DNA of 64,000 bases, from NCBI GenBank assembly GCA_964414145.1, contig CAYPVH010000003.1, forward strand, positions 30,592 to 94,591, read 5' to 3'. Made by a program: the position numbers and the translations under genes. The notes below the pieces were generated by a model. That model worked only from the letters and a program-made list of their open reading frames with translations, did no database searches and had not been told where the DNA came from. Source of the DNA: an uncultured Gammaproteobacteria bacterium (GTDB lineage: Bacteria; Patescibacteriota; Microgenomatia; UBA1406). Of this stretch, positions 44,763 through 60,894 are shown in pieces (positions within the stretch are counted from its first letter, which is position 1; each line of letters opens with the position of its first letter).

Positions 44763-44764
44763 GT

Positions 44765-45319: not shown

Positions 45320-45597
45320 TTTCTTATTTCAAGCTTCTAAATTTATTCAAAATTAGAAATTTGAAATTCAAAATTTGGATTTTGTAATTTGTGATTTGTT
45401 TGGAGTGCTTGGAATTTGGTTATTGGAATTTATTCCCTTATTTCTATGTTCCCAAATTCATAAATTCATATATTCCTGTTTTTATTAGAATTTAGATATT
45501 CGGATTTCGGATTTATTTCTCTTGTTATTACCTCATAACCCGTAACCAGTAACTAGCAACCTGTAAATCTTATCTCCTAACTCCTAAATCCTAACTC
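45320..45597 (-). repeat. mosaic intergenic repeat, copy C of the ~270-bp inverted pair (partner 18278-18540)
   Basis: See 18278-18540. In addition, 45567-45640 is the reverse complement of modules found at 2425-2460 and 3522-3582. Confidence 0.85.
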
Positions 45598-45673
45598 TTT
45601 CTTTTAGCAATTTAATCATTTAACAATTTAGCAATATACTTATTTTTGCTTTTTAACCCCCAATTTATATATA

Positions 45674-46405
45674 ATGAAATTTATGGCTTTTAAAATAAAA
45701 ATACCAGTAGATTTATTACCCATTGCCAGTAAATTAAAAAGCGGCCAAAAAATTGACTGGGGTAAGAAAAGTTTAAAAGAGAAGAGCTTTGAAGAAAAAA
45801 CTATAGATTTAGCAGAAGAGCTAAGTATACAAGCACATGAGGTATTCAAATACGTGTCTGTGTCTTTAGGCGAAATTGTAGAAAAGGGTAAAGTATTGGC
45901 TAAAAAGAAGGGCTTAATAAACAGCAAAACTGTTAAAGCACCAAGTAAATGCGAAGTAAGAAGCATAGATCATACAGACGGAACTTTAAAAATTGCAATT
46001 GAGGAAGAAGTGGATGTTCCTTTTAATTTAGAGGCGAAGTTTATTGATAAGAGTGACGGAAATTATATATTTGAAGTTAATAAAGGATTGCAAACAATTC
46101 TAGAATTTTCAATGGAAAAAACATTCGGAGGCGAGTGTAGCTATATTGAAAAAGAATCAGAAATTTTACCGGAGAACGTTGAAAACAAAGTTGTTGTTAC
46201 ATCACTTAAAAAAGGGATGGATTTGGCTAAAATATGGGCTTTAGGACCAATCGCAATCGTTTCCAGCGAAAGTAGTTACTATCACAGTGAACTGAGTTTG
46301 GCATTATTAAAGGAAAAGCCAGATTTTAAGCAAATAGTTAAAGACAAATGGAAAAAAGCTATTTACTTTCTGAATAGTAAAACTATATACTTTTATAATC
46401 CATAA
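45674..46405 (+). CDS. hypothetical protein
   Basis: 243-aa ORF directly abutting ctpA. A possible barrel-sandwich (biotin/lipoyl-like) segment GEIVEKGKVLAKKKG...VKAP is weak evidence. Start may be 45683. Confidence 0.5.
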   Translation: MKFMAFKIKIPVDLLPIASKLKSGQKIDWGKKSLKEKSFEEKTIDLAEELSIQAHEVFKYVSVSLGEIVEKGKVLAKKKGLINSKTVKAPSKCEVRSIDHTDGTLKIAIEEEVDVPFNLEAKFIDKSDGNYIFEVNKGLQTILEFSMEKTFGGECSYIEKESEILPENVENKVVVTSLKKGMDLAKIWALGPIAIVSSESSYYHSELSLALLKEKPDFKQIVKDKWKKAIYFLNSKTIYFYNP

Positions 46406-47755
46406 ATGACAACAATAGTTGATACTGAAAAAGCAGAAAAAGTTGTAAACTCGGCTGAGGAAGTTAATGATAAAGAAAGAGACAGAAGACTAAACCGTTT
46501 CTCAAACGGTGTTTTAGCTTTGGCAGTAGTATTTTTTATATTTGTTTCCGGTTATCGGCTTGGTGAATACCAATCCGAAACCAAGAAAAGTAGAGAAACA
46601 AACACAACCAATAAAGTGTTTCAGCCAAAAACGTCACCCTTGGAAGTTGAAAAAACTACAGACTTGTCACTGTTTTGGGAAGTATGGGCAACTTTGCAAT
46701 CTAAATATGCCGAACAAGACAAGTTGGAAAACGAAAAGATGGTTTATGGAGCCATTAAGGGAATGGTTGCTTCACTTGAAGATCCATATACTTTTTTCTT
46801 AACTCCAAAAGAAAACCAGGAATCTAAGGATGACCTGGGGGGTAAATATGAAGGAATTGGCGCTCAATTAGGAATGAAAGACAACAGTATTATAGTTGTG
46901 GCGCCGTTGAAGAATTCACCGGCTGAAGAGGCGGGATTAAGAAATGGAGACATTATAATTATGGTAGACAATAAATCTACCAAGGGTTGGACTCTTACCG
47001 AAGCGGTCAACAATATACGGGGTAAGGAAAATACTAAAGTTACATTGGGGATTGCCAGAAAATCGGAAAAAGAACCAATACAAATTGAAATTGTCAGGCA
47101 AAAAATAAAAATGGAATCAGTAGAGCTTTCATATAAAAAACAGAATGGTTGCAGCAAGGATTGTAAAACAGTTGCCTTTATTAAAGTTTCGCAATTTGGT
47201 GACACAACAAACGAAGAATGGGATAAGGCAGTCTACGATGTAAGCCAGAAGTGGAATAAGAAAACGATTAGTGGTTTGGTTGTTGATATGCGCAATAACC
47301 CGGGAGGCTACTTGGATGGTTCGGTATATTTAGCTTCAGAATTTTTAGATGTGGGAAAGTTGGTGGTTAAACAGCAATATGCCGGTGGTAACGGGAAAGA
47401 TTATTTGGTTGAAAGAGAAGGGTACTTAAAAGATATACCCTTAGTTGTGTTAATCAATGAAGGTTCGGCTTCGGCATCGGAAATTTTTGCCGGAGCCATG
47501 AATGATCATGATAGGGCAAAATTGGTTGGTAAAAAAACATTTGGCAAGGGTTCGGTTCAGGAAGCACTCAATTTGGAAAATGGTACCGGATTGCATGTAA
47601 CAGTAGCAAAATGGATATTACCGGGTGGTGATTGGATTAATTCTAAGGGTATTAAACCTACATTTGAAGTAGATAATGAAGTGAAAGAAGGTAATACCCT
47701 AACAGATGAAACCGACAAACAAATGCAGAAGGCTATTTCGGAAATATTAAAATAA
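46406..47755 (+). CDS. ctpA: carboxy-terminal processing peptidase (S41) with PDZ domain
   Basis: PDZ GIGAQLG...VVAPLKNSPAEEAGLRNGDIIIMVD. DMRNNPGGYL. Catalytic region LINEGSASASEIFAGA...GKKTFGKG. Confidence 0.9.
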   Translation: MTTIVDTEKAEKVVNSAEEVNDKERDRRLNRFSNGVLALAVVFFIFVSGYRLGEYQSETKKSRETNTTNKVFQPKTSPLEVEKTTDLSLFWEVWATLQSKYAEQDKLENEKMVYGAIKGMVASLEDPYTFFLTPKENQESKDDLGGKYEGIGAQLGMKDNSIIVVAPLKNSPAEEAGLRNGDIIIMVDNKSTKGWTLTEAVNNIRGKENTKVTLGIARKSEKEPIQIEIVRQKIKMESVELSYKKQNGCSKDCKTVAFIKVSQFGDTTNEEWDKAVYDVSQKWNKKTISGLVVDMRNNPGGYLDGSVYLASEFLDVGKLVVKQQYAGGNGKDYLVEREGYLKDIPLVVLINEGSASASEIFAGAMNDHDRAKLVGKKTFGKGSVQEALNLENGTGLHVTVAKWILPGGDWINSKGIKPTFEVDNEVKEGNTLTDETDKQMQKAISEILK

Positions 47756-47759
47756 AACT

Positions 47760-48902
47760 ATGAAAAAAACAGTAACGTTACTTGTTGTTATTGTTCTAAT
47801 ATTAATACTGGGTGTTTCGTCTGGATTATTTAAGGTAGATCCGTTAAACGAATATTTACAACCCCCAGGTAGTCAAGATAGCCCTAGAAACAATATAGAA
47901 TTTGACAGTGAAGAGTCGGTAGTTGTTAGTGTAGTTGAAAATTCGCTTTCATCTGTTGTAACAATTAATATTCAAAAAACAACAGCAAGCGAAGACATAG
48001 TTCAGTTTGATCCATTTAATCCATTTGCACCTTTTAATGTTCAACCCGGTGAAGAAGAAACGATAGAACAAAATATTGGTAGCGGACTTCTGGTTGAATC
48101 AGATGAAATTGTGGTAACGAACCGCCATGTGGTTGCAGATACTGACGCGGAATACAGTATCATTACAAATGATGGTAAGGAGTATTTAGCAAAGAAAATA
48201 TTAAGGGACCCATTAAACGATTTGGCGATAATTGAAGTGGAAAAAACCGGAATTAAACCGCTAGAATTAGGGGATTCGGATAGTTTAAAGTTAGGGCAAC
48301 TTGCAATTGCAATTGGAACTCCGTTAGGAGAGTTTAGAAATACGGTTACAACAGGAGTTATTTCGGGACTAGGACGTGGAATTACTGCCGGTTCGCCATT
48401 TGAAAACTATGTTGAGCGATTAGATAACGTTATTCAGACCGATGCGGCTATTAATCCGGGTAACTCGGGTGGGCCGCTTTTAAATTCAGCTGGCGAAGTG
48501 ATAGGAATTAATACAGCGGTTTCGCAAAGTGGTGAAAATATTGGTTTTGCAATTCCTTCAAATGTTGTTAAAAATTTAATTAATAACTATAAAAGTTCGG
48601 GTGGGAAAATTAGCAGACCATACTTGGGAATTAGGTACAACGTAATTAACAAAGAAGCGGCTGTTGCAAACGAGATAGTTGAAGGGGCACATATAATTGA
48701 AGTTATAAGCGGGACTGGGGCCGACACGGCAGGCTTACAAAAAGGAGACATTATTCAAAGTATAGATGGTGAGCAAATAAACGAAGATAATGATTTAAGC
48801 GGAATAATAAGGGAAAAAAGCGTTGGTGAGCGCCTTGAATTGAGTGTATGGCGAAATGGTAAGAGTTTTGATGTTGAAGTGAAGCTGGGTGAGTTTGAGT
48901 AA
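47760..48902 (+). CDS. htrA: HtrA/DegP-family serine protease (S1C) with PDZ domain
   Basis: VTNRHVV (His), DLAIIEV (Asp), GNSGGPLLN (Ser), and a C-terminal PDZ with GLQKGDIIQSIDG. Confidence 0.9.
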   Translation: MKKTVTLLVVIVLILILGVSSGLFKVDPLNEYLQPPGSQDSPRNNIEFDSEESVVVSVVENSLSSVVTINIQKTTASEDIVQFDPFNPFAPFNVQPGEEETIEQNIGSGLLVESDEIVVTNRHVVADTDAEYSIITNDGKEYLAKKILRDPLNDLAIIEVEKTGIKPLELGDSDSLKLGQLAIAIGTPLGEFRNTVTTGVISGLGRGITAGSPFENYVERLDNVIQTDAAINPGNSGGPLLNSAGEVIGINTAVSQSGENIGFAIPSNVVKNLINNYKSSGGKISRPYLGIRYNVINKEAAVANEIVEGAHIIEVISGTGADTAGLQKGDIIQSIDGEQINEDNDLSGIIREKSVGERLELSVWRNGKSFDVEVKLGEFE

Positions 48903-48953
48903 ATTCTGTTTCAGACTTTATTTATCCGGAATAGTTTTGTATAATGATAACTT

Positions 48954-49250
48954 ATGAAAAAAAGTATACACCCAAAATATTATGACCAAGCTACTGTTAG
49001 CTGTGCTTGTGGTAATATTTTTAAAGTTGGTTCGGTAAAACCCCAGATTACTGTTGAAATTTGTTATAAGTGCCATCCATTGTTTACAGGAGAAGAGAGA
49101 TTTGTTGATACCCAAGGTCAGGTAGAAAAATTTTTGGAAAAACGAAAAATTGCGAAAAAATATTCTTCGCAAAGAGCGATGAGTAAAGAAAAAAGAGCAA
49201 AAAACCAGGCGCCTCAGAAAACTCTGAAAGATCTTTTGGCTTCTGCCTAA
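48954..49250 (+). CDS. rpmE: 50S ribosomal protein L31
   Basis: [10 protein letters not shown]...CxC...[10 protein letters not shown]. Confidence 0.9.
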
Positions 49251-49278
49251 GTTTTGTAAACGTGGTAAAATTTAACTT

Positions 49279-49983
49279 ATGAATAGTAATATTTGTTTAA
49301 TTGAAGTTGTACAAGGTGTTGGTGGCGACGAGGCAAAGATTTGGGCTTCGGACTTAATTAAAATGTATACACGTTACGCAGAAAAAATAGGTTGGAAAGT
49401 GAAAACCATATCTGACTACTTAATTAGAGTAAAAGGAGAAGGTTGTTATGAAAAGCTAAGGTATGAGGTAGGGGTGCATCGGGTTCAAAGGATTCCGGAA
49501 ACGGAAAGATATGGCAGAATTCATACATCAGCTTCAACCGTACTTGTCACACCGGAAGTAGGCGAGACTAACGTTAATGTTAATCCTTCAGACTTGGAAT
49601 GGCAGTTTTACAGAAGTGGCGGTCATGGTGGGCAGAATGTGAATAAAGTTTCAACTGCCGTTCGGTTAACTCATAGGCCTTCTGGAATCGTAGTTACTTG
49701 TTCTCAGGAGCGGACTCAGATACAAAACAAAGAAATTGCTTTATCTTTATTAACCGGTAAGCTGGAAAGGCTAGCAGAAGACAGTAGGAAAGGGCTAATT
49801 TCTTCATTTTCAGAAAACGCAGGTCATGGTGAACGTTCCGAAAAAATTAGGACATATAATTACCCACAAAATAGGGTAACAGATCACCGGATTAAAAAGA
49901 GTTTCCATAATTTAGATAGAATAGTTACTGGTGACTTGGATAAGATGCTACGCAAAGTACACAAATTAATGCCCAAAAAATAA
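49279..49983 (+). CDS. prfA: class-I peptide chain release factor, RF1-type, lacking N-terminal domain 1
   Basis: Starts at the domain-2 equivalent (IEVVQGVGGDEA). Has a PxT-type tripeptide PET in VHRVQRIPETERYGRIHTS and the GGQ motif in SGGHGGQNVNKV. Only 234 aa. Confidence 0.8.
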   Translation: MNSNICLIEVVQGVGGDEAKIWASDLIKMYTRYAEKIGWKVKTISDYLIRVKGEGCYEKLRYEVGVHRVQRIPETERYGRIHTSASTVLVTPEVGETNVNVNPSDLEWQFYRSGGHGGQNVNKVSTAVRLTHRPSGIVVTCSQERTQIQNKEIALSLLTGKLERLAEDSRKGLISSFSENAGHGERSEKIRTYNYPQNRVTDHRIKKSFHNLDRIVTGDLDKMLRKVHKLMPKK

Positions 49984-49998
49984 AAACAGATATTAGTT

Positions 49999-50004
49999 TA
50001 TAAT
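49999..50004 (+). promoter_or_regulatory. -10 hexamer TATAAT, 6 nt before rnj ATG
   Basis: gttTATAAT followed by gaaata then ATG. Confidence 0.4.
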
Positions 50005-50010
50005 GAAATA

Positions 50011-51645
50011 ATGAAATTAAGAATTATACCATTAGGAGGCCAGTCTAACGTTACTAAAAATCTTTATGTTTACGAATATTGGGAAAATGACGAAATAAAA
50101 GATATTGTTCTTATAGACTGTGGCGTGGGGTTTTTGTCTCATTTGCAAAATCTTGGGGTTGACTTTGTTATTCCCGACGTTAGTTACTTGAACGATAAGC
50201 TTCACTTGATTAGAGCATTATTGATAAGCCATGGGCATGACGACCATATTGGTGCCGTACCCTATATTTTACCTCTTTTAAACTTTCCCCCGGTTTATGC
50301 CCCCAAATTGGCGGCGTTACTGATTAAGGAAAAACTAAAAGAGCTGGAAATAGCTAAGGCAAGGGTAGATATCATTAAATTTCATCATGATTACCAATTT
50401 GGGAATATTAAAGCCAGGTATATTCACATGACTCATTCAATACCAGACACGACACACATATTTTTAAAAACACCTGTTGGAAATATTTATCACGGATCGG
50501 ACTACAAATTCGACCTAACTCCGGTTTACGGTAACCCGCCGGACTTTTCAGAAATTGTTGCCGCCGGAGACACTGGTGTTAAAGTTATGCTTTCGGACGC
50601 GCTTGGGTCTGAAAAAGAAGGATTTACTCTTTCGGAGCGGATTGTTGGTAACACTTTTGAAGAAGAAATGAGGAAAACTAAGGGTAGATTTTTTGTAACA
50701 ACATTTGCTTCGAATATTTCCAGAATCAAACAAGCCATTGAGGCGGCAATGAAATTTAATCGAAAGGTTATTTTTGCCGGGCGAAGCATGAAAAGAAACA
50801 TGGAAATAGCATTGAGCGAAGGCTATGTAAAGCTTAACCGAGAGCATGTGGTTGATGACAAAGCTATAAACAGATTAAACCCAAAGAATACTTGTATTAT
50901 TTTAACCGGATCGCAGGGTGAGTACAATTCGGCACTTGACCGAATTGCGAGCGGTAAGCATAGAACTATTAAAGTACAGAAGAACGATAGAATCTTGTTT
51001 TCTTCGGACCCGATTCCCGGCAATGAAGAGCATGTGCAAGAAGTGATTGAAAATTTGATTGAACGGGGTGCTGAAGTTATTTATACGGCAATTCGTGACC
51101 AGCTTCATGCTTCTGGCCATGGCTCGCAGGGCGACCATAAGTTACTTGCCAGACTAGTGCGACCAAGCTATTTGGTACCAATCGGAACTACGGTAAAGCA
51201 CGCCAGAGCTTATGCGGATGTGATGGGTGAACTAGGGTATAGGGAAGATCAGGTTTTTAGGTTTCATGATGGCGAACCGCTGGTGGTTGAAAAAGGAAAT
51301 ATTTATATGGATGAACCGATTCCATTAAAAGAAATGTTGGTTGACGGCCGTTCGATTGGTGACGTTGGCCAAACTATTTTGAATGAAAGAGAAAGCTTGG
51401 GGAAGGAAGGGGTATTGGTTGTGGTAGTAAAGAAGGGTAAGGTTGAACTTATATCTCGTGGTTTTGTGTTTTACGAAAAAGAATTGTTTACTGAAATTGA
51501 AAAGTTGGCAAGAAGTATAATCAAGAAAAATAGGAACAGAAAGGCATTGGAGGAGCAGTTAGCAAGCCAATTAGCCGGATTTGTTAGTGCTCGTCTTGAA
51601 AGAAGCCCTGAAATTGTACCGGTTGTGGTTGATGAGGTAAAGTAG
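50011..51645 (+). CDS. rnj: ribonuclease J (metallo-beta-lactamase / beta-CASP)
   Basis: LISHGHDDHIGAVPY (HxHxDH), beta-CASP segment, HASGHGSQGD. Confidence 0.9.
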   Translation: MKLRIIPLGGQSNVTKNLYVYEYWENDEIKDIVLIDCGVGFLSHLQNLGVDFVIPDVSYLNDKLHLIRALLISHGHDDHIGAVPYILPLLNFPPVYAPKLAALLIKEKLKELEIAKARVDIIKFHHDYQFGNIKARYIHMTHSIPDTTHIFLKTPVGNIYHGSDYKFDLTPVYGNPPDFSEIVAAGDTGVKVMLSDALGSEKEGFTLSERIVGNTFEEEMRKTKGRFFVTTFASNISRIKQAIEAAMKFNRKVIFAGRSMKRNMEIALSEGYVKLNREHVVDDKAINRLNPKNTCIILTGSQGEYNSALDRIASGKHRTIKVQKNDRILFSSDPIPGNEEHVQEVIENLIERGAEVIYTAIRDQLHASGHGSQGDHKLLARLVRPSYLVPIGTTVKHARAYADVMGELGYREDQVFRFHDGEPLVVEKGNIYMDEPIPLKEMLVDGRSIGDVGQTILNERESLGKEGVLVVVVKKGKVELISRGFVFYEKELFTEIEKLARSIIKKNRNRKALEEQLASQLAGFVSARLERSPEIVPVVVDEVK

Positions 51646-51720
51646 AAGATAAATTCGAAATCCGAATATCGAAATTCGAAACAATCTCAAATAATTAATA
51701 TTAAATAATAAAACTATACT
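51646..51720 (+). repeat. mosaic word-like repeat module (aaattcgaaatccgaatatcgaaattcgaaac + caaat/aata words)
   Basis: Same module series as 18316-18345 and 44831-44857. Confidence 0.75.
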
Positions 51721-51726
51721 AATAAT

Positions 51727-51754
51727 TCATAATCCATAATCCATAATCCATAAT
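51727..51754 (+). repeat. tandem heptamer (t/c)CATAAT x4
   Basis: tcataat ccataat ccataat ccataat. Confidence 0.9.
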
Positions 51755-51761
51755 ATTTTAA

Positions 51762-51902
51762 CCCCGTACCGTGCTTTTCTCTGGTACAGGGGCATAATCC
51801 GTAGTTGATAGATTATTAATATGTCATGTTGAACGCGAGTGCCTGTCCTCCAAATCGGAGGGAAACATTTCATGAAATTCTTCACATGCGTTCAGAATGA
51901 CA
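51762..51902. ncRNA. candidate structured RNA element (two-hairpin, locally GC-richer); strand and function unknown
   Basis: H1 is CCCCGTACC/GGTAC(A)GGGG at 51762-51792. H2 is a 15-bp outer stem, 51822-51836 paired with 51888-51902, with one mismatch. H2 encloses CCTCC-aaatc-GGAGG and the ATTTCATGAAAT palindrome. Confidence 0.3.
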
Positions 51903-51904
51903 GT

Positions 51905-52165
51905 AGAAGAGTTTAAATACGATATTCGAGTTTATATTGACTATTGAATTTTGTCTTTTATCTTCTGATTTATGAATTTCGTCTTTTGTATACTGAATAT
52001 TTTCTATTGGATAATAAATTTTGGATACTGGATAGTGACTATTGATTAATGTATTTTGTCTACTGCATATTGAATACTGTCTAATGACTTCTGGATATTG
52101 GATATTGTCTTCTGGCTTCTGACTAATGGATATTGAATAATGACTATTGACTAATGATATGCAAT
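51905..52165. repeat. low-complexity block of reiterated words (tgactattga, attgaata, ctaatga, tGGATAnt)
   Basis: 51906-51965 is the reverse complement of the 44765-44846 word series. Six TGGATA words lie at 52008, 52022, 52029, 52092, 52099 and 52127. Confidence 0.75.
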
Positions 52166-52171
52166 AAAAAT

Positions 52172-52288
52172 GCCCTGGCTATGACCTATTGTCCCTAGAA
52201 CAAGTCTAAGTATCGTCGGCGCTGAGTAGTTTCACGACTCTGTTCGGAATGGGAAGAGGTGGGCCCTACTCGCACTAATAACCAGAGC
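52172..52288 (-). rRNA. rrf: 5S ribosomal RNA (not linked to 16S/23S in this window)
   Basis: The minus strand reads GCTCTGGTTATTAGTGCGAGTAGGGCCCACCTCTTCCCATTCCGAACAGAGTCGTGAAACTACTCAGCGCCGACGATACTTAG...CATAGCCAGGGC. It has the conserved CCGAAC...GTGAAAC...AGCGCCGA core, and the terminal helix GCUCUGG/CCAGGGC pairs. Confidence 0.9.
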
Positions 52289-52371
52289 AAAATGTATTAT
52301 AGATTATTCAGCTTATGAGTGCAAGTAAAAAGTAATTATTCAATTGCTATAATAATTCTAATTATAAAAAT

Positions 52372-53019
52372 ATGAAGTATACGGATAGGTTTGAGGCAGG
52401 AAAATACCTGGCAGGCAATTTGAAGAAATATAAATCTACTAATTCTTTAGTTTTGGCACTACCAAGGGGTGGAGTACCGGTTGCGTATATAGTTGCAAAA
52501 AGCTTGAATTTACCCCTTGAAGTATTGGTTTCCAGAAAAATAGGCGCTCCCAATAACCCTGAATTTGGAATTGGGGCAATTTCAGAAAACAGCACAGTGG
52601 TACTTGATAAAGAATTAATAAAACAGTTAAAAATTTTGGAAAACAGTTTATCTAGGTTAAAAATGGAAGAAGAGAGAGAACTTAAGCGAAGAATAAATAA
52701 GTACAGAAAAGGTAAAAAGTTGCCAAATTTAAAAGGAAAGACGGCAATAATTATAGATGACGGTTTGGCAACAGGGGTAACAGCATTTGCTGCAGTTGAG
52801 GCAGTTAATAAACTAAAGCCCGAAAGGCTTGTATTAGCGGTACCGGTATGCGCCAAGGAAACGGCAAAAAAAATTAAAGAAAAAGTAGATGAATTTTACT
52901 GTAATTTTGCAGCCTCAGTTTTAAAAGCAATTGGACTGTATTACGAAGACTTTGGGCAAATTAGTGATCGAGAAGTTATTAAGTTGCTGAAAAGGGCAGA
53001 GGACAGGTTTGCTAAGTAA
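52372..53019 (+). CDS. phosphoribosyltransferase-family protein
   Basis: LALPRGGVPVA and the PRPP-binding loop TAIIIDDGLATGVT. Confidence 0.75.
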   Translation: MKYTDRFEAGKYLAGNLKKYKSTNSLVLALPRGGVPVAYIVAKSLNLPLEVLVSRKIGAPNNPEFGIGAISENSTVVLDKELIKQLKILENSLSRLKMEEERELKRRINKYRKGKKLPNLKGKTAIIIDDGLATGVTAFAAVEAVNKLKPERLVLAVPVCAKETAKKIKEKVDEFYCNFAASVLKAIGLYYEDFGQISDREVIKLLKRAEDRFAK

Positions 53020-53058
53020 AGTAACAAATATAAAAATTTGTTTATAAGAGGGATTTAT

Positions 53059-53067
53059 TGATATAAT
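53059..53067 (+). promoter_or_regulatory. extended -10 box TGATATAAT driving the cysK leader
   Basis: Exact TGnTATAAT, 9 nt before sORF ATG 53077. Confidence 0.5.
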
Positions 53068-53076
53068 AACAACATA

Positions 53077-53154
53077 ATGAAACATACAGGCTTTTATAAC
53101 AGTGGTTTTTTTTGTACTCCCCAAATAACGGGGAGGTGTAACTGTTGTAGATAG
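53077..53154 (+). CDS. candidate Cys-rich leader peptide (25 aa: MKHTGFYNSGFFCTPQITGRCNCCR)
   Basis: Hand-translated ATG...TAG ORF with 4 TGT codons (53113, 53137, 53143, 53146). Lies between a promoter and a terminator upstream of cysK. Confidence 0.45.
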   Translation: MKHTGFYNSGFFCTPQITGRCNCCR

Positions 53155-53175
53155 CGCAATATAACAAAATTTACC

Positions 53176-53201
53176 GCCCCGTAATTTACGGGGCTTTTTT
53201 T
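53176..53201 (+). terminator. intrinsic terminator / attenuator hairpin upstream of cysK
   Basis: GCCCCGTA-att-TACGGGGC (8-bp stem) followed by TTTTTTT, 27 nt before cysK ATG. Confidence 0.75.
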
Positions 53202-53227
53202 ATGTATTAAAAATTAATTAACTAAAA

Positions 53228-54127
53228 ATGAAAAATCAAATTAGAAAAATATCGAATTTAATAAGGAACACCCCTATAGTTAGGCTTGATATTAAAAACC
53301 AGATGGTAATAGCCAAACTGGAAAGCTACAACTTAACAGGAAGTATTAAAGACAGAATGGCTATGTATATGGTGCAACAAGCAATAAAAGGGGGAGTACT
53401 GAAGAAGGGTTCTGTAATAATTGAAGCAACAACGGGGAATACAGGTATTGCTTTAGCAGCTCTTTCAGCGGTGCTGGATTACAAATTTATTGCCGTTATG
53501 CCAGAAGACATGAGTATAGAAAGAATGAAAATGTTAAAGCTATATGGCGCCAGAGTAGTTTTAACCAAGAAAAACGACGGGCCCCAAGGCGCAATTAGAA
53601 GAAGAGATTTACTAGCTAGAAAGATAAAAAATTCATGGGTACCGGACCAGTTTGTTAACGCAGATAATGTTACAGCTCACATTCAGGGGATTGCTAGAGA
53701 ACTATTAAGGCAGATAGATGGCAGAGTAGATTACTTGGTACACGGAATTGGTACCGGGGGCACGTTGCTTGGAATAGCGAAGGTATTGAAAAGAAAGTTC
53801 CCAAGTATAAAGGTGGTTGCTGTTGAACCCCGTGAATCGGCGGTGATTGCTGGTGGTAGGGCTGGTCATCACGGTATTCAAGGCATTGGTGAAGGTTTTA
53901 TTCCGAGCTTGGTTGATATGAGGTATATAGACCAGGTGGTTTCTGTTTCAACCAGTGAGGCAGTTAATGAAACAAGAAAAATAGCTAAAAAATACGGCTT
54001 GTTGGTGGGAATTAGTAGTGGGGCAAATATTGCCGCGATAAAAAAAGTATCTGGGGCTGTTGAGGGTAGAAAGAAATTTTTAACCATATTTGCCGACAGA
54101 GGAGAGAGGTATTTGAGTGTGTTGTAA
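53228..54127 (+). CDS. cysK: cysteine synthase (O-acetylserine sulfhydrylase, PLP-dependent)
   Basis: NTPIVRL, PLP-lysine motif GSIKDRMA, TTGNTGIALA, GIGTGGT, SSGAN. Confidence 0.9.
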   Translation: MKNQIRKISNLIRNTPIVRLDIKNQMVIAKLESYNLTGSIKDRMAMYMVQQAIKGGVLKKGSVIIEATTGNTGIALAALSAVLDYKFIAVMPEDMSIERMKMLKLYGARVVLTKKNDGPQGAIRRRDLLARKIKNSWVPDQFVNADNVTAHIQGIARELLRQIDGRVDYLVHGIGTGGTLLGIAKVLKRKFPSIKVVAVEPRESAVIAGGRAGHHGIQGIGEGFIPSLVDMRYIDQVVSVSTSEAVNETRKIAKKYGLLVGISSGANIAAIKKVSGAVEGRKKFLTIFADRGERYLSVL

Positions 54128-54141
54128 TGTAGAATTATTTT

Positions 54142-55089
54142 ATGGCAACAAAAACAAAGTTTACTAAGAAGGATTTTATTAGTATTTTATCTAACCATAG
54201 TCTTGGTGAATATAAAGGTTATGCTGCAATAGCTGAAGGAACAGTGCAAACTAATTACATTTTAATTACAAGTAGTGGTAAATATGTTTTTAAATACTAT
54301 GAAAACAGACCAAGAGAATCTGTATTGTTTGAATCTAGTTTAATTGCATTTCTAAAATCTAAAAAATATCCTTGTCCTGGTATATATAAAGACAAGGACG
54401 CAAATTATGTTGGTAATTATGAAAACAAACCATATGTTATTTTAGAATTTATTGACGGGAGTTATTTAGATACTTCAAACAATAGGCAAATAAAACAACT
54501 TATAAGGGAAGTGGCAAAGCTTCATAATTTAACACATGAGTATAAACCAACAAACGTAGAACTTCGCTGGAATTATAGTGATGAGTTATGTTTAAAGTTA
54601 GCTAAAAAGGAGGCTAGTAAAATAAATACGAAGGAGTCAAGAGATAAGTTAAAATGGCTTGAGGAAGAAGTACACAGGCTTAAACTTCCAAAAACTCTGC
54701 CTAAAGGAATTTGCCACTGTGATTTGTATTATTCAAATATTTTATTTAAAAATAATAAACTAGTTGGATTGATAGACTTTGATGACGCCAACTATACTTA
54801 TTTATTGTTTGATTTGGTTGGATTGATTGAAAATGAAGCCTGGAAAAGAAAAGTGGATGAGGTACTGAACTTTAGCAAAGCCAAAAAGGTTATTAAGGAG
54901 TATGAGAAATATAGAAGGCTAAGCAAAGCTGAAAAACTTTACTTATTTGATGTTTATAAGCTAAGTATATTATTTGACTGTGTGTGGTATTTTAGTAGGG
55001 GAAGTGGAAATAACTTTTTTGAGAAGAATAAGATAGATTGTTTAAATAAAATTGGAAGGGTGAGTTTTTACAAAAGAATGTTTTTTTAG
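54142..55089 (+). CDS. APH-fold kinase (homoserine kinase type II / aminoglycoside phosphotransferase family)
   Basis: ICHCDLYYSNILF...LVGLIDFDDA (HxDxxxxN ... DFD). Confidence 0.75.
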   Translation: MATKTKFTKKDFISILSNHSLGEYKGYAAIAEGTVQTNYILITSSGKYVFKYYENRPRESVLFESSLIAFLKSKKYPCPGIYKDKDANYVGNYENKPYVILEFIDGSYLDTSNNRQIKQLIREVAKLHNLTHEYKPTNVELRWNYSDELCLKLAKKEASKINTKESRDKLKWLEEEVHRLKLPKTLPKGICHCDLYYSNILFKNNKLVGLIDFDDANYTYLLFDLVGLIENEAWKRKVDEVLNFSKAKKVIKEYEKYRRLSKAEKLYLFDVYKLSILFDCVWYFSRGSGNNFFEKNKIDCLNKIGRVSFYKRMFF

Positions 55090-55155
55090 GTGGTTTAATT
55101 ATTTGATAAGAACTTTTTGTTTTTAGTTTTTTCAGTGCTATTAATTTACTCGCCA

Positions 55156-56379
55156 CTATAAACTACTCATAGCTTGCAATTGTTTGGTTTTTATCTTATC
55201 AACCCGGAGCACTACAGTAAAAAATAGTACAAGAATACCAGCTAAGATGAATGGGTAAGCTACATGCTGATCAGCAAGCCAGCCCATTGTTAGGCCAACT
55301 ATTGCACCATAAAGACTAACAAATAAATTTATCAGCGATAGTACTGTAGCTCTTATTTTTTCAGGAATAACTCCGTTTTGATAACTAGAGATGAGTGGAT
55401 TCTTGATCTCTGAAGTTCCGTAGGTAAATAAAAAAGCAAAAAAAGCTATTATAGCACTTGGTGCTACTGCCATAACTAAATAACCAATACCTGGTAGGAT
55501 TGTGCTTACGATCAAAGCTGTTTTTTTACCTAACCATTGTTCAATCGTGAAAATGTTTTTTTGTAAGACTACAGCTAGCAATGCACCAGTCGCAGAGGCG
55601 ATACCCATATTCATTGCTGTTAAGTTAAAGTGGGCAAAATATGGCTGAAATAAAGAACCTAGGGTTCCTGAAAAAGTTGCTGTAAGAATTGATATACCCA
55701 TCAACCACAATAAAAAACTGTTTCCTCTAATACACTGGATACCATTTTTGAGAATAGTGATAGGTGATTCTTCTTCATGTACGTATTCTTTTTTTGGTTC
55801 TTTTAAAGTAAATGCCAATAATAAAGCAATAAATACACTACAGGCAGTGAGGAAAACAGTAAAAAGAAATCTTTCAAGTGTAAAAACAGGAATAAGTAAG
55901 CTACCGAGCATTGGGGCTGCAAAAAAGGCTAAGTAGTAAGCTGCTCCCTTAAAGCCCATGGACTTCTTCATCTCATTTTCTTTGTTTTCGTTTGGTAAGG
56001 TATCGTAGATAAGTGCCTCAATACATCCAGAGGCAAAAGAAAATCCAATACCTGCAATTATGGCTATAACAATAAACTCAAAATAACTATTAGCAAAAAT
56101 ATACCAAACTTCTCCAATTAACTGGAGAAATAGTGCAACTATTACTGACTTTTTCCGACCAATTTTATCTGCGATTACACCTGTGGGAACTTCTGCTAAA
56201 AAAATTGTAGCTACAATAATTGACCAGATTGAACTTGCCTGGAATAAAGTAAGACTTCTTGCCTGAAGGTATAGCGTGCCTACATGACCATATAAGTATA
56301 AACTTGAAAAGAATGTAATTAAGGCAATTTTGTGAGTGTTAGTCAATTTTTTGATATTGTGAAGCTTTATAATTTTCAT
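55156..56379 (-). CDS. MFS transporter
   Basis: 407 aa, about 12 TM segments, and the loop 2-3 motif GVIADKIGRKKS. Confidence 0.85.
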   Translation of the reverse strand: MKIIKLHNIKKLTNTHKIALITFFSSLYLYGHVGTLYLQARSLTLFQASSIWSIIVATIFLAEVPTGVIADKIGRKKSVIVALFLQLIGEVWYIFANSYFEFIVIAIIAGIGFSFASGCIEALIYDTLPNENKENEMKKSMGFKGAAYYLAFFAAPMLGSLLIPVFTLERFLFTVFLTACSVFIALLLAFTLKEPKKEYVHEEESPITILKNGIQCIRGNSFLLWLMGISILTATFSGTLGSLFQPYFAHFNLTAMNMGIASATGALLAVVLQKNIFTIEQWLGKKTALIVSTILPGIGYLVMAVAPSAIIAFFAFLFTYGTSEIKNPLISSYQNGVIPEKIRATVLSLINLFVSLYGAIVGLTMGWLADQHVAYPFILAGILVLFFTVVLRVDKIKTKQLQAMSSL

Positions 56380-56760
56380 ACGTGTTAATTAATTCTATAG
56401 TAATGGATCTGTTTATTCTATCTTCTTGAATTATATGTCTATACCATCTATACGCAAACGCTAGCTTTAGCAAAGTATGGGAGCGGGTAACGATACGGTG
56501 CTCGAACCTACAGCGCGCCAGCAACGCCAAGCTTTGCTTATTTAGCCAGGATGTCTATATCAAACCTGATCTAGTTTTACAGTTGAACTTTCTTAAAAAG
56601 CATTTAGCATAAAAACCTTTGCAGACACTATGTAAGTGCTTTATACCCTAGGTGACGTTTCAATCTCCATTCTTATTATCTAAACTGATTAAGATTTGAG
56701 GGGTTAGTTAACGTTAACGTACCGACTTACGCCAGAGCAAATGAGCCTTCAAGTATTTTT

Positions 56761-57270
56761 TTATATTATTTTTACTGTTTTCTTACTAGTATGATTAGAA
56801 CTATCAACAGCATACTTCTCCCATTTTCCCAGATCAGAAAACTGATGCCACATTTTTCGTACTACTTCAGGCTTTACCAAGGCGTCCGGGTTTTGGCGTT
56901 CAACAGCACGCTTTATCGTTGTTTCTTCATTTGGGCGTAAAACGATAAATCGTACGTCAATTTTCTTTTGGGCTAGTTTTAACCAAGGATTCAAAAACCA
57001 TGGACCAACAACACCATCAACATATGTTTCAAATCCTCCCTCTGCGTATCTCTTAGCACATGCTGTAATTGCTTCCATCACAACAATATTTTGTTGTTGC
57101 GCTTCTGTTTTCCATGGAAGAACATATCCTTTTTTAATTGCATCATAAAAATCATCGGTATGTAAATGAATTGCGCGACTATGACATGACTGTTCAGCTA
57201 GCTGCTTAGCAATAGTTGTTTTACCAGAGCCAGGCGATCCTGAAATAATGACAATTGTAGCTGATGACAT
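56761..57270 (-). CDS. P-loop kinase-like protein (AAA/zeta-toxin/chloramphenicol-phosphotransferase-like fold)
   Basis: IIISGSPGSGKTTIAKQLAE Walker A. About 170 aa. Substrate unknown. Confidence 0.6.
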   Translation of the reverse strand: MSSATIVIISGSPGSGKTTIAKQLAEQSCHSRAIHLHTDDFYDAIKKGYVLPWKTEAQQQNIVVMEAITACAKRYAEGGFETYVDGVVGPWFLNPWLKLAQKKIDVRFIVLRPNEETTIKRAVERQNPDALVKPEVVRKMWHQFSDLGKWEKYAVDSSNHTSKKTVKII

Positions 57271-57458
57271 ATACTTATTGTATACTTTTTCGTCTAAACT
57301 TATGCGAACAAAGCTTGAAAGTTACCTACTGAATATTTTACTCTGATTAAAAAGGATATTAGAACGACTATGGCACTGATTATAAATACTTTTCCACGAT
57401 TTATCGATCTAGTTAGTGTTAGTTAATGTAAATTAGTATTTATTTCTGTCACTTTATG

Positions 57459-57529
57459 AGCGGGATACGGGAGTCGAACCCGTCTCTGCTCCTTGGAAGG
57501 GAGCTGTTGAACCGCTCAACTAATCCCGC
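57459..57529 (-). tRNA. tRNA-Gly (anticodon UCC)
   Basis: Minus strand: GCGGGAT TA GTTG AGCGGTT CAAC A GCTCC CTTCCAA GGAGC AGAG ACGGG TTCGACT CCCGT ATCCCGC T. 71 nt. Confidence 0.9.
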
Positions 57530-57580
57530 GGTTACAAGGAAAACAATAATTCATATTTTAGCAAAATCGACAGTGATTTT

Positions 57581-57778
57581 GTACAGGGTCGGACCCTGCA
57601 GGGTCCGACCCTGTAAAACGGGTATAAGTAAGGCGCTGAATACTTAATATAACAACTGATTAAAATAAGCGGTTATAATAGCCTAGTTCTGGAGGTCCGT
57701 CCTCTTTAAGGACGGACCTCATAAAGTGGGGCAAAGTAAAGCTCTGAAATGTTAATTGCCTAAACAGGTCTGACCTGT
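57581..57778 (+). repeat. ~198-bp composite hairpin repeat, left copy (direct repeat of 62569-62766)
   Basis: Contains tandem palindromes CAGGGTCGGACCCTG and CAGGGTCCGACCCTG, REP hairpin copy 4, and the palindrome ACAGGTCTGACCTGT. Near-identical to the right copy apart from a few substitutions and the hairpin loop. Confidence 0.9.
57692..57720. repeat. REP-like hairpin, copy 4
   Basis: GAGGTCCGTCC tctttaa GGACGGACCTC. Confidence 0.9.
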
Positions 57779-57822
57779 TTGGAAAAGTTGATTTTAGGAA
57801 AAATATAGATAGAATATTGTGT

Positions 57823-58035
57823 ATGCGACGAACTGGAAAGCTATCTATATTATTATTTATGATTATGCTTACATTAGCTTTGTTGGTTCCGATTAATGCG
57901 TCGTGTGCATGTATTTCGTATATTGGAGATATAAAGACAGGAAAAGTAATTATGGGTGAAAGACAACCATTTTGGGAAATTATAGTTTTTAGGATATTGT
58001 ATGGTGAAATAAAAAAACCTCTACACAATAATTAA
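57823..58035 (+). CDS. possible small exported protein (70 aa)
   Basis: MRRTGKLSILLFMIMLTLALLVPINASCAC has a signal-peptide shape with a Cys shortly after the hydrophobic core. No homology evidence is available. Confidence 0.3.
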   Translation: MRRTGKLSILLFMIMLTLALLVPINASCACISYIGDIKTGKVIMGERQPFWEIIVFRILYGEIKKPLHNN

Positions 58036-58040
58036 ATACT

Positions 58041-59234
58041 TCATGAAATAACCTTAGAATAAATAGAAGGTAGAAAGAGCATGAAGATTAATACCCAAAG
58101 TATAAGTAAAAAACCCAGAATATATAGAATAATGATAATTCCGAAATTGTTTGCAATTAAACCAAAGAGAAGCACAAATCCTATGTATAAAATTTCAAAA
58201 GTAAAACTTTTTAAAGAAGAAATAGTGGCTCTTTGAGTAGAAATTATGGTGTGCTGAAATTTAGCTTCTAGTTTTAAGTGCGCTATTTTCAATAAATAAA
58301 GTCCCAAAAATATTAGTAAAACAGAAATATATGATTGTAATATTCCAGCGGTAAAAAACAAACAAGCACTAAATAGAAGTAGAGCACTTTCTTTTAGTAT
58401 TGTGCCTTTCCTGTTAAATAAGGGAAGTGTAAAACCGGCAAGAACAAAGCAACCATAACCAATGGCAACAAGTATGCCAACAATTGCAGGGGAATATTTC
58501 AGAAACTTATATATAAGGGCCCAGTATTCCTCAGCTGCTCCGTATGTAGCAAATATCAGGCAAAAGAAAGCTAAAATACCGAGTAATTTAGTATTGTTCT
58601 TAATTTCGTATACAGCTTCTTTAAGTAATTTAAGATAATTTACCTCATCGGTTGACTTAACTGGTTTTATAGATTCTATTGTAAGAAGGACAATAATACC
58701 CAAAATACTAGTATAAATACTAGCTAGCAGAACTAAGTTAAAATTTATTGTTGCTAACAACCCACCTAGAATTGCCGAAGTTGTAATTCCCAACCAAAAT
58801 GCGCTTTCCAGCCTTCCGTTAATTTCTTCATAGGATTTTTCTAGTCTATGAGTTTTAAGGGTATCATATACAAGAGCTTCTTGTGTGCCACTGACTAATG
58901 CGTTTTTAATACCCCACATAACAAAACCAAGTGCATAAAGTAAAAAAGTACCTTTTAACCACAGAACAAAACCTAATATATGAATAAATGAAGCAATAAT
59001 TAATAAATTACGACGTGAATATTTATCAGCGACAGTTCCTAGGGGTACTTCAAGAATAAATTGAGTACCTGCCCAAATAGCTATAAGTAGGGATATTTGG
59101 AATGGATTAATACCGTTACTTGTAAACAGTAATACAAAAATTACGCCAATGGGTTTAACAGCGTCTAGAAACTTATATAAGGCAAACTTATTAGTAAATC
59201 GGTTCATAAAGTTATTATATTTGAACAAAGACAA
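58041..59234 (-). CDS. MFS transporter
   Basis: 397 aa, about 12 TM segments, loop motif GTVADKYSRRN. Confidence 0.85.
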   Translation of the reverse strand: MSLFKYNNFMNRFTNKFALYKFLDAVKPIGVIFVLLFTSNGINPFQISLLIAIWAGTQFILEVPLGTVADKYSRRNLLIIASFIHILGFVLWLKGTFLLYALGFVMWGIKNALVSGTQEALVYDTLKTHRLEKSYEEINGRLESAFWLGITTSAILGGLLATINFNLVLLASIYTSILGIIVLLTIESIKPVKSTDEVNYLKLLKEAVYEIKNNTKLLGILAFFCLIFATYGAAEEYWALIYKFLKYSPAIVGILVAIGYGCFVLAGFTLPLFNRKGTILKESALLLFSACLFFTAGILQSYISVLLIFLGLYLLKIAHLKLEAKFQHTIISTQRATISSLKSFTFEILYIGFVLLFGLIANNFGIIIILYILGFLLILWVLIFMLFLPSIYSKVIS

Positions 59235-59322
59235 TTTTGTAGTAGCGTTATTTTTAGATTTGTAAGGACGGTTATAGTAAAATGGTACACAATAAAGCTC
59301 TGAAGCATTAATTGTTTTAACA

Positions 59323-59362
59323 GTTTTAACAGTCAGACCTGTACAGGTCTGACTGTTAAAAC
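59323..59362. repeat. perfect 40-bp palindrome (GTTTTAACAGTCAGACCTGT/ACAGGTCTGACTGTTAAAAC) within a degenerate third copy of the composite repeat
   Basis: The reverse complement of the first 20 nt equals the second 20 nt exactly. 59262-59322 resembles 57706-57765 (taaggacgg...aaagctctgaa..ttaattg). Confidence 0.9.
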
Positions 59363-59431
59363 AGCAGGATATAGCATTAGTACAGTCTTTTTGAGAATTG
59401 TTTAAGACTGCTTATGAAAATATAGCGCTTT

Positions 59432-59440
59432 TGGTAAACT
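59432..59440 (+). promoter_or_regulatory. extended -10 box TGGTAAACT, 8 nt before ATG 59449
   Basis: TGnTAAACT with no SD. Confidence 0.4.
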
Positions 59441-59448
59441 TTAACATT

Positions 59449-60024
59449 ATGCAAGGTGTAGTAAATGAAACAACTCTTGTTAAACTTTTTAAGCCATTTA
59501 TTATTGAGTGTAGAAGCGGGGATTGGGAACACGCATTAAGAGTAGTGGCGTGGGTTAAAATATTGGGAAAAGATAGAAATGATTTACTTATATTAATAAT
59601 TGCCGGTTACTTGCATGATATTGGATGGTATAAGCTGGTTGAAAAGGGAGCCAAGCTTTCCAGAGCCAAATTGCTTAAATTACAGCCAAAGGCAGACAAA
59701 CAAACAGATGTGTTATTAACAAAAGTACTGAAATATATCAATTTAAAAGGTGAGGATATTCAAAAAATAAAAAGACTTATTCAAGCAACCGAAACATATA
59801 TTGCATTTGAAGAAGACGAAAAAATACTGGTAGATTCTGATAATTTAAGTAAAACCGACCCTAAGCATATTAAAGAAAAATATAAGAAAACTGATTGGTT
59901 GGAAATTATAGATTTGTTTGAGAAAAAACTTCCACATAGAATTAAAACCGAACAAGGTAAAAAATTGTTTAGTATTAAGCTGGCAGAGCTAAAGGAAACT
60001 ATCGAAGATGAACTAAATAAATAA
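59449..60024 (+). CDS. HD-domain phosphohydrolase-like protein
   Basis: WEHALRV ... AGYLHDIGW (H...HD). ATG 59449 is preferred over TTG 59398. Confidence 0.7.
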   Translation: MQGVVNETTLVKLFKPFIIECRSGDWEHALRVVAWVKILGKDRNDLLILIIAGYLHDIGWYKLVEKGAKLSRAKLLKLQPKADKQTDVLLTKVLKYINLKGEDIQKIKRLIQATETYIAFEEDEKILVDSDNLSKTDPKHIKEKYKKTDWLEIIDLFEKKLPHRIKTEQGKKLFSIKLAELKETIEDELNK

Positions 60025-60033
60025 ACCGTATTT

Positions 60034-60894
60034 ATGATTAAAAATGTAAAAATAGATTATTCCATTGTAGAAAAGGTAATCGCATTTTTTGACTTACATA
60101 ACCCTATTAATATTAAATATATTAAAGAAGGAATATCTAATAGTAATTATGAAGTTAAAACAAGCGAAGGAGTGTATATAGTTCAATTATTAAGTATTAA
60201 CAAGGAAAGGACTATAGAGAATGTTTTGAGTATACATTCACAGATGAGAAAAACGAGAATATTAATTCCAAAATATATAAGCAATAAGGACGGGCTATGT
60301 ATGTATAAAGATAATGAATTGGTAGCCGTTGTATACAAAAAAATATTAGGAATAACTCCAAAAACGGTAAACAAAACTCTTGCATATGAATTTGGTAAAT
60401 GTTTAGCAATCTTTCATAAGTGCGTTATAAAACTGCCATATAATAATAGAAATGCATTAGTAGACCAAGTTAATTCAGGTATTAAAACAAACCTGTATGC
60501 TAAAAACTTGCCGAAGGGTATTATTCATGGTGATTTGCATTTAGGTAATGTTATGGTTGAAAGTGATAAGAACTTAAAAATAACTGCTTTACTTGATTTT
60601 GAAGAAGCACATATAAATTTATTAATAATAGATATTGCAGTTACTGTAATGGCTACATGTTCTAAGAATAATGGTACACGAGTTGATATTGATTTAATTA
60701 GAAATACAATTAGTGGCTACCAAAGTATTAGAAAATTAGAAAAATTTGAAAAGCAAAACTTTAAAGAGGCAGTTAACTATGTAGCACTTTGTTGGATTGA
60801 ATGGTTTAAAAATAACGATTATGTTAAGTATGCAAAAAGACACTTAAAGCGTTTAAATAATTTTAATAAATTAAACCAGGGTGACTATTTTTAA
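60034..60894 (+). CDS. APH-fold kinase (homoserine kinase type II / aminoglycoside phosphotransferase family)
   Basis: IIHGDLHLGNVMV...ALLDFEEA. Confidence 0.75.
   Translation: MIKNVKIDYSIVEKVIAFFDLHNPINIKYIKEGISNSNYEVKTSEGVYIVQLLSINKERTIENVLSIHSQMRKTRILIPKYISNKDGLCMYKDNELVAVVYKKILGITPKTVNKTLAYEFGKCLAIFHKCVIKLPYNNRNALVDQVNSGIKTNLYAKNLPKGIIHGDLHLGNVMVESDKNLKITALLDFEEAHINLLIIDIAVTVMATCSKNNGTRVDIDLIRNTISGYQSIRKLEKFEKQNFKEAVNYVALCWIEWFKNNDYVKYAKRHLKRLNNFNKLNQGDYF

Follow-up and report, generated by a model that had tools for sequence, protein, structure and literature searches.

In the classical leader-peptide attenuators (trpL, pheL, hisL, leuL, and thrL), a short leader open reading frame (ORF) rich in codons for the end product is combined with alternative 1:2 / 2:3 / 3:4 pairings, a Rho-independent terminator lies before the first structural gene, and a stalled ribosome masks segment 1. 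The same layout was observed in a 64-kb stretch of contig CAYPVH010000003.1 (the window, meaning the whole stretch of DNA that was analysed), within the 208-nt gap between the end of a phosphoribosyltransferase ORF (53019) and the start of the cysteine synthase gene cysK (53228). Judged from its sequence and that of its relatives, this leader most likely regulates cysK by ribosome-mediated transcription attenuation in response to charged tRNA-Cys. It belongs to a real and conserved family of a known kind of regulator rather than to a new mechanism, and the family is apparently undescribed. It differs from the classical attenuators in that cysteine is sensed, cysK is the target, and the host belongs to the Patescibacteria rather than the Proteobacteria. 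Moreover, its short ORF (sORF) is near-leaderless and lacks a Shine-Dalgarno (SD) sequence, and in the window it contains one sensor codon, with a second Cys cluster located after segment 2.

Polycysteine leaderless sORFs of mycobacteria have been shown experimentally to unmask a ribosome-binding site (RBS) (Canestrari et al. 2020, Mol Microbiol 114:93; 10.1101/834739). As proposed for the cysK leader, these sORFs are leaderless and come first on transcripts of cysteine metabolism, and stalling at Cys relieves an inhibitory structure; consecutive Cys codons are present in both. In mycobacterial Ms5788A, however, the structure sequesters the downstream RBS (translational attenuation) and no intrinsic terminator is present, whereas a canonical terminator with a U-run was found here. 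Two or more consecutive Cys codons occurred in the window sORF at codons 23-24 only, and in relatives CC or CCC stood at codons 10-14. The RBS-masking feature was not matched in the window, where the U-tailed terminator ended 26 nt before the SD-less AUG, and dual control would be possible in some relatives only. Because the phyla are unrelated and no sequence similarity was seen, the mycobacterial and Patescibacteria devices are most simply regarded as independent inventions.

Other Cys leaders have been predicted. The upstream ORF uORFC-8-2, predicted before cysS of Rhodobacterales, carries two tandem Cys codons at about positions 14-15, and its two stems and 3' U-run, which fit an intrinsic terminator, were read as ribosome-mediated attenuation (Brewer et al. 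2021, RNA Biol 18:2417, PMC8632094). It is likewise only a prediction, but it precedes a Cys-tRNA synthetase gene instead of a cysteine synthase gene, it comes from Alphaproteobacteria, and it was not reported to be leaderless. In Actinobacteria, short ORFs with runs of Cys codons were predicted upstream of cys or cbs operons in a study that detected neither a terminator nor alternative hairpins and did not decide how these ORFs act (Seliverstov et al. 2005, BMC Microbiol 5:54, PMC1262725); here, in contrast, the full attenuator architecture was present and covaried. The initial annotation of this locus had called such a device unusual, which now has to be toned down, since mycobacteria have known Cys leader ORFs and further ones have been predicted in other Actinobacteria and in Rhodobacterales. 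The literature searched contained no attenuator from Patescibacteria and no Cys attenuator of cysK with an intrinsic terminator.

Elements of the cysK leader and their conservation

Inspection of the sequence, the ORF list, and a terminator scan located the -10 box, the sORF with its four TGT codons, the hairpin inside it, and the terminator with its T7 run at the positions given by the initial annotation (Table 1). The ATG at 53077 lies 9 nt past the -10 box, which makes the sORF near-leaderless, and the stop codon TAG occupies 53152-54. For a -35 element, only a weak resemblance was seen, TTGTTT at 53038-43 (18 nt upstream of the -10 box). The Cys codons, all TGT, start at 53113, 53137, 53143, and 53146, and the codons at the sensor position read TTT TTT TGT. 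Within segment 2, GGGGAG (53130-35) pairs with CUCCCC of segment 1 (53117-22); this hairpin was part of the minimum free energy (MFE) fold of the leader, but the fold also contained an outer stem that had been missed before. The outer stem was specific to the window and not conserved in L048 or L055, two related leaders. The terminator hairpin (53176-94), GCCCCGTA-att-TACGGGGC as DNA, is made of segment 3 GCCCCGUA (53176-83), the loop AUU, and segment 4 UACGGGGC (53187-94), and is followed by U7 (53195-201). Its stem has 8 bp, six of them G-C, with a hairpin energy of -13.3 kcal/mol; the distance to the cysK AUG is 33 nt from the end of the hairpin and about 26-27 nt from U7. The scan of 20 kb (44001-64000) ranked it as the strongest canonical terminator and showed no other strong one, and it is located in a 5' leader. 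Terminator-like sites were not enriched in that region (14 against 11.6 in shuffles), where genes seem ordinarily to end without a classical intrinsic terminator.

Cysteine is rare in the proteins of the window, accounting for 0.67% of the 18,440 residues in 64 long ORFs. At this protein frequency, at least four Cys in 24 codons have a probability of 2e-5; in random sequence of the same composition the value is 0.005. Among the 489 ATG-initiated sORFs of 12-45 codons in the window, three contained at least four Cys codons, and by their coordinates the other two lay inside long ORFs. The leader ORF was thus enriched in codons for the amino acid of the cysK pathway, with one such codon at the conserved position in the window.

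A hexamer resembling a -10 box ended 6-12 nt before the start codon of 28 of 62 long window ORFs, with a peak at 6 nt and 0.41 expected per offset (examples are the starts at 5636, 16376, 26630, 33240, 35962, 42541, and 50011), and an SD-like 4-mer preceded 7 of 64. From these start contexts, the genome appears to be largely SD-less and near-leaderless, this being the normal start mode for first genes; no description of such starts for Patescibacteria was found in the literature searched. The sORF shares the start context of about half of the window genes and is therefore probably translated. This shared spacing between -10 box and start, together with the comparative data below, agrees with the earlier proposal of an apparently leaderless Cys leader peptide.

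The cysK loci were taken from assemblies with the closest homologues and from a metagenome scan. The ordered device (-10 box, sORF, Cys cluster, segment 1, segment 2, stop, terminator, cysK) was found in about 26 distinct upstream regions, on Patescibacteria-type contigs whose cysK homologues were 45-67% identical. Nearly all of the members examined had a TATAAT-like box, in many cases TG-extended, that ended 4-13 nt before an ATG or GTG. The sORFs had 15-32 codons, with the Cys cluster at about codons 10-14 (CC, CCC, up to C9), a C/U-rich segment 1 straight after the cluster, and a G-rich segment 2 further on, and the G+C-rich terminator hairpin with its U-run stood 4-37 nt before cysK. A count made independently of the model, over 110 distinct upstream regions of cysK homologues, gave 26 with both a terminator and a CC-containing sORF, 3 and 6 with one of the two, and 75 with neither. 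The conservation of a Cys-rich sORF and a terminator in relatives, which the initial annotation had asked to be surveyed, was borne out by this count. The flanking genes were unlike between loci, and some upstream genes were divergent; therefore, it is cysK, rather than the gene upstream, that the device accompanies.

The leader was present in lineages named Beckwithbacteria and Shapirobacteria, and it was not found before one Woesebacteria and one Staskawiczbacteria cysK. It was absent from all Chloroflexota and other distant cysK loci examined; a contig scan with the window CysK gave relatives of 31-47% identity, mostly Chloroflexota, none with a leader. A covariance model (CM) of the family, R1, found no second copy in the 64 kb (next best score 18 bits), so that no multi-locus Cys regulon is visible there; this model missed the short-class leaders described below at E <= 0.01.

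The leader peptides, such as MDKTRTYQLNNCCCLSLNGRCCCSG (L048), MNKRNVYLVNYCCSSLFLGRSCCS (L055, from the NCBI metagenome-assembled genome GCA_018816485.1, 'Patescibacteria group bacterium'), MSFKDRTLLNLCCTSFLTGRFCC (L060), MKKESQIKVSCCCSLS (L086), and MNCCQKNLNFCCCCCCCCCNSAKKEVISAKKK (L083), were unconserved except for Cys and the residues imposed by the RNA helices. Between close relatives, the variation of the sORF is coding-like at the sequence level: L054 and L055 showed four codon differences, three of them synonymous, and between L083 and L085 two Cys codons were gained or lost in frame. Cys cluster 1 was universal in the family, but cluster 2 was missing from the short class and from many leaders with long spacers. 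The long class with cluster 2 consisted of the window leader, L048, L055, L057, L059, L060, L062, L063, L081, and L121. In the short class (L072, L076, L086, L089, L102, and L091), the stop codon lay between segments 1 and 2, so that a terminating ribosome would cover segment 2 as in the textbook trp-type layout.

Variants were seen at the margin of the family. The sequence type of L077 and L078, represented by L140 (371-600) with a Dojkabacteria-named CysK (P0096), carried the sORF MLPKSRKYNSCCCRI without a canonical terminator and three copies of AAAUCGAGA / UCUCGAUUU with possible alternative pairings, and may be a differently wired Cys attenuator. In L103, a distance of about 220-260 nt separated the sORF MKGKSLVGCCCC (about 1109-1148) from the cysK homologue downstream, and no terminator was detected. 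The 1:2 hairpins of L059, L060, L062, L065, L069, and L102 were followed by a U-rich stretch and flagged as terminator-like by the screen; in these leaders the hairpin could be an early, translation-sensitive terminator.

Table 1. Features of the cysK leader and of the genes it precedes (positions in the window)
Feature	Positions	Strand	Description
Extended -10 promoter element	53059..53067	+	TGATATAAT; from the sequence
Leader sORF	53077..53154	+	25 codons and TAG, encoding MKHTGFYNSGFFCTPQITGRCNCCR; from the ORF list
Outer stem	53090..53155	+	53090-53103 / 53141-53155; encloses the 1:2 hairpin in the untranslated fold
Cys cluster 1 (conserved sensor position)	53113..53115	+	Single TGT, codon 13; CC, CCC, up to C9 in relatives
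Segment 1	53117..53122	+	CUCCCC; 5' arm of the 1:2 hairpin
Segment 2	53127..53138	+	AACGGGGAGGUG; partner of segment 1 or of the terminator 5' arm
Cys cluster 2	53137..53148	+	TGT AAC TGT TGT, codons 21-24; long leader class only
Intrinsic terminator	53176..53201	+	3:4 hairpin and U7; from the terminator scan
cysK	53228..54127	+	CysK/CysM-family cysteine synthase, 299 aa, without Shine-Dalgarno; proposed regulated gene
Kinase gene	54142..55089	+	APH-fold kinase, 14 nt past cysK; resembles homoserine kinase type II

Alternative pairing and the position of the proposed stalled ribosome

The switch proposed by the initial annotation depended on the pairing of ACGGGG (53128-33) with CCCCGU (53177-82) in the terminator 5' arm. 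These stretches are complementary, and the duplex is extended by three further pairs (G53135-C53175, G53136-C53174, and U53137-A53173), so that segment 2 contributes 53128-33 and 53135-37 to the antiterminator. The duplex energies in the window were -13.4 kcal/mol for 1:2, -16.7 kcal/mol for 2:3, and -14.6 kcal/mol for 3:4. The leader as a whole had an MFE of -42.3 kcal/mol (z = -3.84 against shuffles). The 2:3 duplex was better than shuffled controls in 28 of 28 leaders, with a mean z of -3.7 and a z of -3.4 in the window. With a ribosome mask on cluster 1 and segment 4 still untranscribed, segment 3 paired with segment 2 in 27 of the 28. This co-transcriptional state before segment 4 was used in place of equilibrium folding of the full masked leader. 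In the window, the masked folds had -21.4 kcal/mol for the antiterminator and -22.4 kcal/mol for the full-length terminator, at most 1 kcal/mol apart; therefore, the alternative pairing is competitive in the energy comparison that the initial annotation had called for.

The comparison of leaders pointed in the same direction. In every leader, segment 2 was a near copy of the terminator 3' arm and therefore can pair with the 5' arm, and it changed along with the terminator arms across sub-lineages (ACGGGG, GGGAGG, GGGGAGC, GGGGAGU, AAGAGG, UGGGGCA). Pairs were counted in alignment A4, an in-register pseudo-alignment of the four segments in which the best-pairing windows were chosen and which is thereby biased to pairing: 95% of the 2:3 cells were standard pairs, changes on both sides occurred at 7 of 7 pairs (36 cells), and none of 500 shuffles matched this. 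The shuffle control, which checks partner match within against between sequences, is the relevant control for A4, and slid-register controls gave at most 69.6% paired. For 3:4, 99.4% of the cells were paired in A4, again with changes on both sides at 7 of 7 pairs. The MAFFT alignment A2, the covariance model R1, and the realignment A3 were dropped for pair counts, since helix registers remained shifted in them, and were replaced by A4. Thus, the 1:2 / 2:3 / 3:4 architecture claimed for the window recurs in about 26 diverged lineages, with covariation in the 2:3 helix.

The geometry was evaluated with an assumed ribosome footprint of -15 to +12 from the first nucleotide of the A site, which was placed over the final cluster 1 codon; this footprint is the established toeprint geometry. 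Segment 1 started between -5 and +3 nt from the end of cluster 1 across leaders, and segment 2 started 11-21 nt past cluster 1 in 27 of 28 leaders, the exception being L132 (6 nt). In the window, segment 1 begins 0-1 nt and segment 2 begins 11 nt past Cys codon 13. The footprint of a ribosome stalled on cluster 1 thus covers segment 1 and ends right before segment 2, a distance which fits the earlier suggestion that a stall at the first Cys codon would free segment 2. Segment 3 started 21-30 nt after the stop codon in most leaders.

From these elements, the following course of events is proposed. Transcription would be constitutive from the extended -10 promoter and would start a few nt after the box; the sORF AUG would lie at, or about 0-5 nt from, the 5' end and be translated at once as a leaderless message. 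When Cys-tRNA is ample, the ribosome would run over segment 2 to the stop codon, and 1:2 and 3:4 would form. In this state segment 2 would be paired with segment 1 or occupied by the ribosome itself. If the leader is not translated, segments 1 and 2 would pair and the terminator would form too. Transcription would then end at the U7 run, 27 nt short of cysK. Under a shortage of Cys-tRNA, the ribosome would stall with Cys codon 13 (53113) in the A site and cover segment 1; the freed segment 2 would pair with segment 3 once this is transcribed, no terminator would form, and cysK, probably with the kinase gene behind it, would be transcribed. Transcripts reading in from the upstream gene, in which the sORF is not leaderless, should terminate.

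Several points weigh against the attenuator. In equilibrium folds of the full-length masked leader, the terminator stayed the MFE structure for the window copy and for roughly half of the family; the model therefore depends on co-transcriptional kinetics, thermodynamics alone are not decisive, and the decision of the switch would be kinetic, as in the classical attenuators. The pairing bias of A4 counts on the same side, and the unbiased MAFFT/CM alignment, in which registers were shifted, gave only 75% paired cells. The leader is missing in at least 10 lineages whose cysK is 50% identical or more. At the sensor position, two or more Cys codons are present in nearly all other leaders but one in the window, whose sensor may therefore be weak or in decay. 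The other three Cys codons of the window copy follow segment 2 directly on its 3' side, where a stall would cover segment 2 and favour termination. In addition, the transcription start site was placed from the -10 box alone, and the host is an uncultured bacterium of the Patescibacteria type.

Other explanations of the leader

With an experimental precedent in M. smegmatis, the Cys sORF might act on translation, the hairpins hiding the ribosome-binding region of cysK and a stall exposing it, with termination being secondary. In five relatives, the 3' arm of the terminator (GGGAGG/GGGGAG) indeed ended 4-11 nt before the cysK AUG (L102, 352-380; L091, 1446-1473; L065, 1449-1479; L081, 1451-1482; L083, 969-1001), where it could double as an SD sequence and give joint transcriptional and translational control. 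In the window, however, the hairpin and its U7 end 33 and 26 nt before the AUG, segment 4 is not SD-like, and cysK has no SD in a genome that rarely uses them. Furthermore, the stem was G+C-rich and canonical in every family member and had a U-run behind it, a design needless for masking an RBS. Control of translation is therefore considered very unlikely as the principal function.

The terminator might also be governed by a riboswitch or by a protein- or tRNA-binding element, the sORF being incidental. In other phyla, S-boxes or T-boxes control genes of sulfur metabolism, and the folding of the leader beyond its shuffles would suit such an element. Against this, no Rfam 15 family reached its gathering threshold anywhere in the window, nor did any in 20 relatives, no T-box, S-box, or other riboswitch model matched in 52900-53400 even at E <= 10, and no T-box motif or specifier loop was present in the leader. 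The best sub-threshold families were themselves leader-peptide attenuators, Phe_leader (RF01859, 30.7 bits, threshold 55) and Trp_leader (RF00513, 22.0 bits, threshold 41); both models aligned the start codon, the hairpin, and the terminator, a likeness that is functional and does not imply membership. Moreover, loops and linkers were unconserved, the helices and Cys codons alone being kept, and in every case a start codon with gene-like surroundings opened the frame that holds the Cys cluster. The riboswitch or T-box reading was rejected on the Rfam results and the unconserved loops, and a ligand-binding element of any of these kinds is judged highly improbable.

The arrangement of Cys codons in the window raised the question of whether its logic is reversed or involves two checkpoints, with cluster 2 as the main stall site leading to more termination, or with a collision of ribosomes. 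Cluster 2 has three Cys codons in the window and cluster 1 only one; the clusters stood 7-11 codons apart, one ribosome length, in all long-class leaders; and by footprint arithmetic an A site at 53143 or 53146 puts segment 2 under the ribosome. On the other hand, shutting off a cysteine synthase under cysteine shortage is physiologically senseless, cluster 2 is not universal and cluster 1 is, and the ribosome reaches cluster 1 first, so that a reversed or two-checkpoint switch carries very little probability. Of the four Cys codons listed in the initial annotation, the first belongs to cluster 1, the family-wide sensor; the other three form cluster 2, whose position would favour termination. 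As ideas for cluster 2, it may be a brake by which ribosomes are held on segment 2 when cells are replete, it may serve an RNA pairing inside the 2:3 loop (UGUUGUA, 53143-49, is able to pair with UAUAACA, 53160-66, and likewise in L048 and L055), or it may be a collision sensor.

The least credible explanation is the absence of regulation, with the terminator ending the transcript of the phosphoribosyltransferase gene (52372-53019), which has no earlier terminator of its own, and the sORF arising by chance, as short ORFs do in AT-rich DNA (489 in the window), or encoding a functional Cys-rich micropeptide, since the 26 nt between U7 and the ATG are too little for a cysK promoter, the device recurs behind differing and even divergent upstream genes, the peptide is unconserved beyond Cys and helix-imposed residues, and terminator and CC-sORF are tightly associated.

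The proposed regulated gene, its surroundings and the meaning of the family

The protein encoded downstream of the leader is a pyridoxal phosphate (PLP) enzyme of the CysK/CysM family. It matched PF00291 with 231 bits and scored slightly under the cut-offs of two NCBIfam models, TIGR01136 cysKM (340.2 bits, cut-off 344.15) and TIGR01139 cysK (338.4 bits, cut-off 350.95). The closest CysK homologues were metagenomic, with at most 67% identity, and the named ones were cysteine synthases of Patescibacteria (Woese-, Beckwith-, Shapiro-, and Dojkabacteria, and Microgenomates). The lineage of the host was assigned by the names of these homologues rather than by a marker phylogeny. Two of the source samples, JGI 3300076260 and 3300076594, contained a locus identical to that of the window.

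The kinase gene (54142-55089) scored 157 bits with NF003558 (cut-off 271) and 125 bits with thrB_alt. It is probably co-transcribed, and thus co-regulated, with cysK, and as a speculation the kinase could supply an O-phospho substrate to the CysK homologue. In tblastn searches, matches to this kinase were found only in the window's own lineage; a conserved module of cysK and the kinase-like gene was rejected, as no homologue stood beside cysK at any other locus. In the closest relative, L048 (1-2302), the neighbouring genes matched Replic_Relax (weak), DUF87, and TrwB-like (faint) Pfam families typical of mobile elements, and the cassette of cysK and leader may move horizontally.

In the region 51651-52160 and 52173-52286 (-), a block of degenerate tandem repeats with periods of 7, 14, 28, and 35 nt (units such as TGACTAA and ATAATCC) separates an RNase J-like gene from a lone 5S rRNA gene, and no 16S or 23S rRNA gene was found within the 64-kb window. 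The terminator scan of 44001-64000 also revealed a G+C-rich hairpin of 34 nt and 15 bp at 62570-62603, TACAGGGTCGGACCC-TGCA-GGGTCCGACCCTGTA, directly upstream of a minus-strand ORF (61937-62536) and conspicuous in this AT-rich genome.

Leader-peptide attenuation has so far been documented almost wholly in Proteobacteria and Actinobacteria, and the cysK leaders would extend it to a large uncultured radiation, with the understanding of the attenuation mechanism itself unchanged. RNA-family databases would gain a candidate family from them, of use also when sORFs are annotated in metagenome-assembled genomes, and at about 125 nt they offer a compact test bed for leaderless translation coupled to intrinsic termination. 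They also provide a regulatory argument that the CysK homologues of Patescibacteria serve cysteine synthesis under cysteine limitation. A bolder combination, considered unlikely, takes the leaders as an undescribed family confined to Patescibacteria (Microgenomatia-type lineages) and as the first ribosome-mediated attenuator recognised in the candidate phyla radiation (CPR), with cluster 2 as a second checkpoint. If so, cluster 2 of the long class, as a brake on segment 2 or a collision sensor, would make a two-site attenuator without a described counterpart, and these reduced, presumed auxotrophic cells would make their own cysteine and tune this to the charging of tRNA-Cys via leaderless translation.

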